A DNA stretch of 64,000 bases from the NCBI RefSeq assembly GCF_002854065.1, contig NZ_CP024147.1. One strand, written 5' to 3'. How positions within the stretch are numbered: position 1 is the stretch's first letter; each line of letters starts with the position of its first letter. This document shows positions 46,401 through 49,400 of this stretch, piece by piece. The position numbers are program-made. This DNA is from Escherichia coli (GTDB lineage: Bacteria > Pseudomonadota > Gammaproteobacteria > Enterobacterales > Enterobacteriaceae).

Positions 46401-49400
46401 TCCAGCATTGCCTGTGCGGCATTCCCGGTGCTGTATGAATCGGTTACTGATATATTTTCCTGCATAGATTTAACCGGCCATCTGAGATGGTCGACAGGTT
46501 AACATAATTACAGCCATTTAGGGCCACGCGCTCAGCCCGCGGGTGAAAACGCATCTATCACCTTGTGATCGACACCTTCATTCTCCCCCGCCAGTTCGGC
46601 ACTGAGCTTCGCCATAAACTCGACTAAAAAATGCGCGTTGTGCTGCGCCAGCTGCTTGCCTCTTACGGTTTGCATGGTTTGCGGTAGCTTCAGCAACTTA
46701 GTCTGGAAATGATCCAGCGCGTAACGTTTATCATCAAGCGGGCGATGCTGTGCGAGCGGATCTTCGGCATCAAACAGCGCCACGCCCAATGCCCCTGAAA
46801 CGGCAAACACACGTGCCAGGCCAATCGCCCCCAGGGCTTCCAGCCGATCCGCATCCTGGACAATTTTAGCTTCCGTGGTTAAGGGGGCGATTTGCGCGCT
46901 GAAACTGTGAGCGGCAATGGCATGACAAACGGCCTCAATTTTCTCCGCCGGAAATTGCACGAACTCTTCACGGAGCAGGCGACGCGTCTCTTCTGCCGCC
47001 AGGATTGAAGAACGCTGCCGTTGCGGATGATTTTTCGCCAGGCTCACAATATCGTGGAAATAACAGGCTGTTAAAATCACCAGCATATCGACATCGTCAT
47101 CTGCCGCCAGCTTCTGTGCCGTAGCCCAGACGCGGCGAAAATGACACACGTCATGAGCCGCGTCCTGGTGCTGATGATGGTTTTTCAACCAGTTTTCGAA
47201 CTGTGCCTGCCAGTGTTGTAAGTCCATACGCGCTCCGTTGCCAAAGAGTCGCCACCTTAGCAGTTTTTATTCATAGCGTCTGCTACGTGCGGGACGAGGT
47301 CGGGTGTACCAGGCAATGCTGCCTAACAATGCCCCGACCAGAGCCATAAATAAAAATCCGACCAGTGCCCCTAACCACTTTTCCGCGGTAGAGCCTAAAT
47401 CGCTTTCAAATCCCGACACGGGGGCATCGGGGATCCGGCTAATCACCCAGATGTAACGCGCCATTGCCCAGACGAAATAGCCACACCATGTATAGAAAGC
47501 CCACAAAGCCAGTTTGCCGCCAGGGCTGCGAGAGAGTCTCTCTTCCATCTTTGTCGAACCGTATTCCATTTTGAGATAACCCGGAAAATTCAGACTAAGC
47601 ACTATTATGTGATAAAAGTCACATTTTTCCACATTGAATGAGCCAGTCAAGACTCAATCATTTTTTGAACAAATAGATAAATTTTGCGCAACGGCAGTGA
47701 ATACAGGAAAAATCGTTTTGAGCGATTTTATTTATCTTTGATATCGGCTTTATTAATTCATTCAATCAATATATTAGCACTGATTACAATTATACCTTTT
47801 TATTATTCTGTGTCATGATGCCTCCGTTATTAGCCTTTTATCGTCTTGTTTATATTTTTTGGGCCGGCATGATGCCGGCTTTTTTTTATGCCTTCATTAA
47901 TGTGCGCGTGATCACACCAGCCGTTTAGCGCATCAATCATTGATACCCCCTATCTTTCCGCTCAACTCATAACATATTGATATGCATTTATAATTTTCAT
48001 GAATATTTATATTTAGAATTCATAATTATGAATTATATTAAATAGATTAGAAACATTTTGAAATCTTTTAAATATATTTGTTACATGTAGTCCTTAAAAT
48101 AAAATGAACTTCATAGAATAGTATCCAAATGTGCTTTTTTTTTGGATAACGGCACTTATTGATATATTCATGAAGATTATAATCACAAGGGAATACATAA
48201 TGAAAAGAAAAGTTCTGGCAATGCTGGTCCCGGCGTTATTAGTTGCTGGCGCAGCAAATGCGGCTGAAATTTATAATAAAGATGGCAATAAAGTTGATTT
48301 CTACGGCAAGATGGTTGGCGAACGCATCTGGTCAAATACTGATGATAATAACAGCGAAAACGAAGATACCTCCTATGCTCGTTTCGGTGTTAAAGGTGAA
48401 ACCCAAATCACCAGCGAACTGACTGGTTTTGGTCAGTTTGAATACAACCTCGACGCCAGCAAGCCCGAAGGTGAAAACCAAGAAAAAACCCGTTTAACCT
48501 TCGCCGGTTTGAAATATAACGAGTTAGGATCATTTGACTATGGCCGTAACTACGGTGTTGCTTATGATGCCGCAGCTTATACCGATATGTTAGTTGAATG
48601 GGGTGGCGATTCCTGGGCTTCCGCTGACAACTTCATGAATGGTCGTACCAACGGTGTTGCAACCTACCGTAACTATGATTTCTTTGGCCTGGTTGATGGT
48701 CTTGATTTTGCGATTCAGTACCAAGGCAAAAACAGCAACCGTAGCACTAAGAAACAAAATGGTGACGGCTATGCGTTGTCTGTAGACTATAACATCAATG
48801 GTTTTGGTATCGTTGGTGCATATAGCAAATCTGATCGTACTAATGAACAAGCTAGTGACGGCTACGGTGATAACGCTGAAGTGTGGTCATTAGCAGCCAA
48901 GTATGATGCAAATAATATCTATGCAGCAATGATGTACGGTGAAACCCGCAACATGACCGTTTTGGCTAATGATCATTTTGCAAATAAAACCCAAAACTTT
49001 GAAGCTGTTGTACAGTATCAGTTCGACTTCGGTTTACGTCCGTCTTTAGGCTACGTATATTCCAAAGGCAAAGATCTTTATGCTCGTGATGGACATAAAG
49101 GTGTTGATGCTGACCGCGTAAATTATATCGAAGTTGGTACCTGGTACTACTTCAATAAGAACATGAACGTCTACACAGCATACAAATTCAACATGCTGGA
49201 TAAAGATGACGCCGCCATTACTGGCGCAGCAGCTGATGACCAGTTTGCAGTTGGTATCGTCTACCAGTTCTAATCAGCCAACGCGCCGCGGCGTGTTACT
49301 GTAAAACTGAACACTAGCCTGAGTTCGTCCCTCATCGAACTCAGGCTTTTTTATTGGCATTTCATCTCCATCTGCGGCACACGCAATTGCCGAAGCATAT

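Follow-up and report, generated by a model that had tools for sequence, protein, structure and literature searches.

Intact and alternative porin alleles at the yedS locus of Escherichia coli, behind a conserved and probably silenced promoter

Is yedS, a porin gene that is a pseudogene in Escherichia coli K-12, intact in other strains, and what does the very AT-rich DNA in front of it mean? Both questions were raised by a preliminary description of a stretch of 64,000 nt of an E. coli chromosome (contig NZ_CP024147.1 of assembly GCF_002854065.1; the whole stretch is called the window here), in which the gene order is yedA-vsr-dcm-yedJ-drpB(yedR)-yedS-hchA-hprS-hprR. It held that yedS is a full 357-codon porin gene in this strain, with a signal peptide and a C-terminal aromatic residue, and that the AT-rich region in front is a sign of xenogeneic silencing, so that the gene may be intact but cryptic. 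We find the gene intact, and find that most complete E. coli genomes carry a porin here that is one of at least four very different kinds, all behind a single conserved, probably silenced promoter. An intact yedS as such is ordinary, common in E. coli and already known, and a role in carbapenem entry has been published. The point of interest is a cassette polymorphism that is common to several genera.

An intact porin gene at the yedS site

The open reading frame (ORF) as listed for the window runs from a GTG at 48131 to 49273 (380 amino acids, aa). The true start of yedS is the ATG at 48200, which lies 7 nt after the Shine-Dalgarno sequence AAGGGA (48187..48192, + strand; kept in all genera examined below) and gives 357 codons. 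This coding sequence (48200..49273, + strand; 357 aa and a stop) is an allele of the family called A below, as judged from the ORF, RefSeq, the Protein Data Bank (PDB), Pfam, AlphaFold2 and substitution rates. It has no internal stop, and the protein ends in ...VGIVYQF, with a C-terminal Phe. The signal peptide of 21 residues (48200..48262, + strand) is identical across all E. coli allele families (0/21 differences), and its cleavage site was placed by alignment to the mature PDB chains, which begin at residue 22. Both the signal peptide and the C-terminal aromatic residue, a signal for the beta-barrel assembly machinery, are present in YedS, as the preliminary description had said. RefSeq calls the identical gene an intact 'porin' (WP_032281084.1). 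By position the gene is yedS, because the porin lies between drpB(yedR)-rseX and hchA, downstream of dcm-yedJ, in the same order as in K-12.

The Pfam model Porin_1 (PF00267) matches YedS residues 27-357 over its full length (positions 1-337 of 337, E 6e-122). Alignment to solved porins, the check proposed at the outset, runs end to end in an uninterrupted frame, with OmpK35 of K. pneumoniae (9hn1) as the best match at 505 bits; among solved E. coli porins, OmpF gives 401 bits and OmpC about 340 bits. OmpK35 is the best structural relative and has the same L3 motif, LVEWGGD, whereas the surface loops of the window YedS differ from those of OmpK35 and OmpF. The AlphaFold2 model has 16 strands and a long L3 (residues 117-152) with a short helix. 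The constriction residues K37, R149, D129 and D137 are the same in all of 31 homologues, R61, R98 and E133 are nearly invariant, and both the acidic L3 motif and the basic ladder are conserved. From the alignment and the usual OmpF numbering, we take these pore residues to be the equivalents of OmpF K16, R42, R82, R132, D113 and E117.

YedS is not one of the named porins of E. coli. It scores 452 bits against the OmpF equivalog model NF007446 (cut-off 583), 426 bits against the PhoE equivalog NF007544 (cut-off 599), and the window allele scores 429 bits against the OmpC subfamily NF007841 (cut-off 484). The gene is not the ompF orthologue, since its locus beside drpB and hchA also differs from that of ompF. 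Based on the structure prediction and the alignments, YedS is a Sec-exported, 16-stranded, OmpF/OmpK35-like general porin, encoded by an intact allele and predicted to function as a channel.

The ratio of nonsynonymous to synonymous substitution rates (dN/dS) is 0.03-0.10 in the barrel, and loop dN is several-fold above barrel dN. YedS is under purifying selection, with the exposed loops changing faster. Codon choice was measured as the C-ending fraction of Asn, Asp, Tyr, Phe and His codons, which is 0.45 for yedS, 0.85 for ompC and 0.37 for the median ORF of the window. By this measure yedS looks like an ordinary gene, without the signature of constitutive high expression or of a major porin. 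An intrinsic terminator follows at 49316..49357 (+ strand), with a 12-bp stem and then TTTTTATT.

The gene has been lost elsewhere by several routes. The K-12 copy, a pseudogene as stated in the preliminary description, is annotated 'frameshifted; internal stop'. Compared with an intact relative, it has a CAG>TAG change at codon 162 and lacks 1 nt at nt 663. The gene of O157:H7 was inactivated independently, by a 1-nt deletion at nt 608, and at the corresponding locus of Salmonella diarizonae only a C-terminal remnant of a C2-like porin (a family defined below) is left. A third route of inactivation was seen in E. coli 23CRST038 (NZ_AP045810.1), where an IS3-family transposase interrupts the porin of this locus.

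Alternative porin cassettes at one locus

A total of 5,426 complete E. coli genomes were searched by megablast, and a family was counted at 80% coverage or more, which records presence and not intactness. Family A, the window type (357 or 371 aa), was found in 1,629 genomes, family B (352 aa) in 1,140, family C1 (387 aa) in 366, and family C2, the K-12 type (395-404 aa), in 1,662. About 88% of the genomes have a full-length match to one of these four. Outside K-12 and O157:H7, all 11 of the 11 sampled alleles are annotated as intact, including the copy in strain CUWW06 and four of family C2. An intact yedS is common in E. coli and not exceptional.

Amino-acid identity between the families is low: 67% for A and B, 60-64% for A and C, 59-60% for B and C, and 71-73% for C1 and C2. 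When representative loci were aligned, the flanks, rseX, promoter, leader and signal peptide were 94-100% identical in all of them. Promoter, leader and signal peptide are common to all E. coli alleles at that level up to about 48250, and identity to other allele classes is 30-80% only within about 48270-49255, in the mature protein. The drop in identity is confined to this span, which marks an exchangeable mature-domain cassette (48270..49255, + strand). Differences between alleles are concentrated in the extracellular loops L1, L2 and L4-L8, and the barrel and L3 are conserved. With 520-544 bits, families C1 and C2 exceed the OmpC-subfamily cut-off of NCBIfam. Families A and B fall below every NCBIfam cut-off, and their best score is the one against OmpF. 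One locus therefore has both OmpC-like and OmpF-like barrels as its alternative alleles.

K-12 itself illustrates the pattern. Its yedS (annotated as yedS_1/2/3) lies at this locus too, and identity to the window is 97-100% in the flanks, rseX, the promoter, the leader and the signal peptide, whereas the K-12 mature domain is of the OmpC-like C2 family, about 397 aa when intact, and inactivated, and the family-A cassette of the window is intact. Exchange was confined to the cassette, because the window flanks are 99-100% identical to those of K-12, whose cassette is C2. The mature domain of the window allele is 60-62% identical in amino acids to C2, the K-12 YedS/OmpS1 type, and falls in a separate deep clade, so the two are not orthologous in this part of the protein.

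Within family A, the window copy is a mosaic, a rare recombinant of two subtypes. Counted as differences per 100 bp, it is of O18 type to about 48800 and of C41 type from about 48850 to 49100, and the last 100 nt are of O18 type once more. From the 371-aa O18 type it differs at 4 positions in the first 600 nt and at 125 between 48800 and 49180; from the C41 type it differs at 39 before 48900 and at almost none from 48900 to 49100. The allele was found at 99% identity or more in 5 of the 5,426 genomes. The 2.2 kb around yedS are 100% identical to strain CUWW06, and this region has a match of at least 99% in only 3 of the 5,426. Mosaics of families A and B also exist.

The locus was then compared across genera. 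A scan for yedJ over species-representative genomes gave 80 loci, and a porin lies directly beside yedJ/drpB in 52 of them, from about 50 species and about 15 genera. The 300 bp upstream of the porin have 19-33% GC in 52/52 of these loci. In Citrobacter, Enterobacter hormaechei and E. fergusonii, the porins most closely related to family A stand at the same yedA-vsr-dcm-yedJ(-drpB) site, and E. coli family A is 80-85% identical to porins of other genera versus 60-67% to E. coli B and C. A neighbour-joining tree, without bootstrap support, groups the locus porins by family and not by genus. Clade A holds Escherichia, Citrobacter braakii, some Enterobacter, Leclercia, Kosakonia, Phytobacter, the Klebsiella oxytoca group and Raoultella; clade C1 holds E. 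coli, many Enterobacter, Lelliottia, Huaxiibacter and Pluralibacter; and clade C2 holds Escherichia, most Citrobacter, Superficieibacter and Kluyvera. The signal peptide, on the other hand, follows genus and not porin family. The E. coli pattern is repeated within E. hormaechei, where a family-A and a family-C1 locus have flanks 90-100% identical and cassettes 40-73% identical. Outside E. coli, a protein search with family B gave no named relative of more than 69% identity; among the best 120 matches of a C2 allele there were Escherichia and Shigella only, so that Salmonella OmpS1 was not reached.

The E. coli ompC loops and the central domain of fliC are known systems of the same kind, in that the ends of yedS are conserved, the surface-exposed middle is hypervariable, and mosaics arise by intragenic recombination. 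Unlike in those genes, the divergence at yedS is far deeper (59-72% amino-acid identity between families), crosses the line between OmpC-like and OmpF-like porins, and involves families that recur in other genera. In the literature searched, no published description of such a cassette polymorphism for yedS was found.

Several observations were made on the downstream side of the gene. On the + strand, the 591-bp yedS-hchA spacer (49274..49864) is strongly enriched in C, and its GC skew falls to as low as -0.49. In some RefSeq genomes a minus-strand 'hypothetical protein' of 125-136 aa is annotated in this spacer; in the window it is split into ORFs of 85 aa and 78 aa, and it matched no NCBIfam family. 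At the same position E. fergusonii (locus L017) has, between the yedS-type porin and hchA, a second porin gene (7663..8772 and 9231..10688 being the coordinates of this and of a TrkH-family gene) whose 369-aa product has a different signal peptide, MKKLTVAV...; the window spacer has no similarity to these extra genes. In Citrobacter amalonaticus S646, the porin at the yedS site is a relative of this second E. fergusonii porin, with 72% identity.

The AT-rich control region

The 549-bp spacer between drpB and yedS holds first the rseX promoter and rseX, then the counterpart of a CRP site, and last a 313-bp yedS regulatory region. At 27-29% GC it is the lowest in the window and as AT-rich as is expected of an H-NS-type region. 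The 200-bp segment of lowest GC in all 64 kb (19.5%) starts at 47971, and only 0.09-0.16% of segments are as low in GC as this. The extreme AT-richness first reported is borne out (27.2% GC over 47900..48200 against 49% for the window), but the region is not the plain upstream DNA it was taken for, as the known gene rseX lies inside it and had been overlooked. Further stretches of the window below 33% GC are at 22581..26661 and 55641..55991.

The gene rseX (47797..47886, + strand) encodes an Hfq-binding small RNA (sRNA) and matches the full Rfam model RF01401 with 99 bits, against a gathering score of 50. It is on the same strand as yedS, 313 bp upstream of it. The drpB-rseX spacer before it (47651..47796, + strand, 28.8% GC) has a putative rseX promoter, in which TACAAT (47785..47790, + strand), 7 nt before the Rfam start of rseX, reads as a likely -10 element. 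A terminator scan found an intrinsic terminator at the end of the gene (stem 47861..47881 and a T-run, + strand). Occurrence of rseX is restricted to E. coli, in all allele classes, E. fergusonii, S. diarizonae and some Citrobacter. A 37-codon hydrophobic ORF (47816..47929, + strand), MMPPLLAFYRLVYIFWAGMMPAFFYAFINVRVITPAV, overlaps rseX and its terminator and is probably fortuitous. The sRNA RseX acts in dependence on Hfq and lowers OmpA and OmpC (PMC7648144).

A counterpart of a K-12 CRP site (TGTGA-N6-GCACA) can be read at 47898..47918, with no strand assigned, and differs from it by one spacer base. The K-12 site was mapped in vitro and appears in a Footprint-seq table as CRP site 2033766 'ggTGTGAtcaggcGCACAtta yedS' (PMC12871828). 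The counterpart lies just past the rseX terminator, and the predicted start of yedS transcription is about 200 bp further downstream. A second CRP-consensus site, at 47608..47628 within the 5' end of drpB, also matches an in-vitro footprint of K-12 (PMC12871828).

The yedS regulatory region and leader (47887..48199, + strand) have 27.5% GC and are 94-100% identical among E. coli allele classes. When the 200 bp before the porin gene were aligned for 21 sequences, drawn from about 12 genera and covering all allele families, sharp conserved blocks stood out from a variable AT-rich background. Four phased 10-bp OmpR-like boxes, GAAACATTTT GAAATCTTTT AAATATATTT GTTACATGTA, occupy 48050..48089 (+ strand) and are conserved at a level of 70-90% or more in the 21 sequences. 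They hold an exact 11-nt match, ACATTTTGAAA, to the C1 OmpR site of ompC, which was checked in the real ompC upstream region. A putative -10 element, TAGAAT (48114..48119, + strand), lies within the block ATAGAATAGTA, which is nearly invariant across genera, and a further conserved block reads ATATTCAT. A consensus promoter scan had proposed TTGTTA-16-TAAAAT, which was set aside in favour of TAGAAT because the latter is conserved across genera. Transcription would then start at about 48125, about 75 nt upstream of the ATG. The boxes would stand at about -76 to -37, the same position as the promoter-proximal OmpR sites at ompC and ompF.

A hairpin at the 5' end of the leader (48125..48165, + strand) has the same position in most genera, with stems that differ and pairing that is kept (GTGC/GCAC, GTAG/CTAC, GTAACCC/GGGTTAC, GTCA/TGAC). 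When sequences were folded one by one, 16 of 26 evaluable ones gave z < -1.5; RNAalifold on a MAFFT alignment of the leaders did not find a consensus structure. Pairing of sRNAs with the leader was scored with seed-restricted sRNAs against yedS -45..+21, as z against shuffles, and unrestricted RNAduplex pairing was set aside since it gave long meaningless duplexes. RseX (z +0.9) and MicF (z +0.6) pair with the yedS leader no better than shuffles do. The controls were positive, with z -2.1 for RseX and the ompC leader and z -5.3 for MicF and the ompF leader. Simple leader pairing thus gives no support to the reported control of YedS by MicF.

At micF-ompC and micC-ompN, an sRNA gene beside one porin gene represses other porins, and the position of micF beside ompC was confirmed. 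The window locus resembles these pairs in that rseX adjoins yedS and that RseX pairs, by prediction, with the ompC leader and not with the yedS leader. Unlike them, rseX and yedS are not divergent: both lie on one strand, one behind the other, with a terminator between. The gene of another sRNA, DsrA, lies 8 kb from rseX/yedS (39373..39459, - strand; Rfam 102 bits); hns is down-regulated by DsrA.

Silencing, alternatives and significance

Is the intact gene held silent? In K-12, rseX is undetectable unless hns (and stpA) is removed, and hns/stpA mutants show de-repression of 'RseX and surrounding areas' (PMC8313858). The window spacer is 94-100% identical to this K-12 region. A precedent comes from Salmonella, where ompS1 is quiescent, silent in the laboratory, repressed by H-NS/StpA and de-repressed by LeuO, and where its sister ompS2 has OmpR and LeuO as known activators (PMC4264507); yedS has been equated with ompS1 (PMC2731931). 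The window locus is like OmpS1/OmpS2 in its AT-rich upstream DNA, its OmpR-like boxes and its low codon bias. The name 'outer membrane protein S1' is given to some E. coli proteins of family C2, and S. diarizonae keeps drpB, rseX and the C2-like remnant at the same site. It is unlike OmpS1 in that the window YedS is an OmpF/OmpK35-like porin of family A (357 aa), only 60-62% identical to the OmpS1-like C2, and fails the OmpC cut-off.

Taken together, we hold with moderate confidence that this is an intact general porin gene at the ompS1 locus which is conditionally expressed, OmpR-dependent and silenced by H-NS/StpA. Its conditional expression and silencing are suggested by the promoter blocks, the codon usage, the H-NS/StpA data on rseX and the Salmonella precedent. 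This reading starts from direct observations, namely intactness, fold, purifying selection, conserved promoter blocks, synteny and allele structure, and would extend to four further points: that H-NS silences yedS itself, that the promoter needs OmpR, where transcription starts, and that porins are swapped. A weak promoter about 75 nt upstream of the ATG would depend on OmpR bound at the four phased boxes. H-NS/StpA, spread over a 550-bp region of 29% GC with rseX inside, would normally hold that promoter off, and relief of silencing would turn on rseX and yedS together, although such co-regulation is something we infer. YedS would then replace the major porins, because RseX lowers OmpC and OmpA and has no predicted pairing to the yedS leader. 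The mature domain is an exchangeable cassette, with diversifying selection on its surface loops. The word 'cryptic' for yedS in the preliminary description is on this analysis plausible.

Several points weigh against this reading. The AlphaFold2 model has a pLDDT (predicted local distance difference test) of 78, a moderate confidence. A scan for the H-NS motif TCGATAAATT found 3 matches in the 549 bp against about 0.8 expected, a mild local enrichment that is not decisive; a one-mismatch match lies at 47674, in the drpB-rseX spacer. The OmpR-like boxes were identified by similarity and conservation only, and the leader hairpin is weak in E. coli (-4.8 kcal/mol, z -0.4). A clinical isolate without OmpC and OmpF reportedly uses a functional, MicF-regulated YedS that affects the entry of carbapenems (Warner et al. 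2013). Silencing of YedS may therefore be incomplete.

YedS could instead be an ordinary minor porin, appreciably expressed wherever it is intact, behind AT-rich DNA that is simply a typical OmpR-type porin promoter and not silenced. Strong conservation of the promoter, leader and Shine-Dalgarno sequence and strong purifying selection on the barrel would fit this, as would the functional YedS of the clinical isolate (Warner et al. 2013), and a surface proteome of O26:H11 contains a porin described as 50% homologous to K-12 YedS, although its identity with the allele of the yedS locus is unverified (PMC9731836). This is hard to square with codon usage that lacks the translational-selection signature of ompC, with an adjoining rseX that is undetectable unless hns is deleted (PMC8313858), and with losses in K-12 and O157:H7, by IS insertion and in the S. 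diarizonae remnant, which suggest that the gene is often dispensable. We consider it unlikely, though the most serious of the alternatives to a silenced gene.

Xenogeneic silencing, as in the preliminary description, would mean that the gene and its AT-rich upstream DNA were recently acquired and are kept silent as foreign. The coding sequence has 43% GC against 49% for the window, and the upstream DNA 27%; family A is nearer to other genera than to E. coli B and C; and the cassette is wholly unlike the K-12 copy between flanks 99-100% identical, which implies that the cassette was exchanged by recombination. However, the AT-rich region, promoter blocks and signal peptide are in all E. coli alleles, the blocks recur at the same site across about 12 genera, the four families are alike in GC and codon usage, and no integrase, insertion sequence or other mobile-element gene lies on either side of yedS in the window. 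Nor does the locus look like a recently acquired island, with a porin at the yedJ/drpB site in 52 of 80 loci. AT-richness is not evidence of xenogeneic origin here, because it is a conserved promoter feature at the same syntenic site in about 15 genera. The region appears to be an ancestral regulatory feature in which only the cassette moves; recent foreign origin is improbable overall and, for the regulatory region, largely refuted by these comparisons. An ORF that is intact by chance, as a young pseudogene or behind a dead promoter and without current function, would fit the loss of the gene in other lineages and the rarity of the exact window allele. It is very improbable given an open frame of 357 codons with a barrel dN/dS of 0.04-0.10 against close and distant relatives, intact pore residues, and a promoter and leader (48100..48200) that are 99-100% identical to other E. 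coli and retain every cross-genus block.

Beyond the silenced, intact porin gene that we favour, a broader proposal is tentative, and we would give it rather less than even weight. At the yedS/ompS1 locus there may be a balanced, trans-species polymorphism of 'porin cassettes', in which a conserved control module of OmpR-type promoter, leader and signal peptide (with RseX co-silenced in Escherichia, Salmonella and some Citrobacter) would drive whichever ancient OmpF-like or OmpC-like barrel is present. Selection by phages, colicins, immunity or antibiotics would keep or exchange the families across E. coli, Enterobacter, Citrobacter and further genera, and on de-repression the porin peculiar to the strain would take the place of the major ones. 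The allele structure itself is observed; balancing selection or repeated inter-genus transfer may be what maintains it.

Core-gene analyses tend to lose yedS, since the gene is a pseudogene in both K-12 and O157:H7. Strains may differ in their reserve porin, since very different porins occupy the yedS site, and if so this would bear on antibiotic permeability after loss of OmpC and OmpF, on phage and colicin receptor range, and on antigenicity. As the same alternatives occur within Enterobacter hormaechei, the locus is a candidate for long-term balancing selection or for repeated exchange of cassettes between genera.

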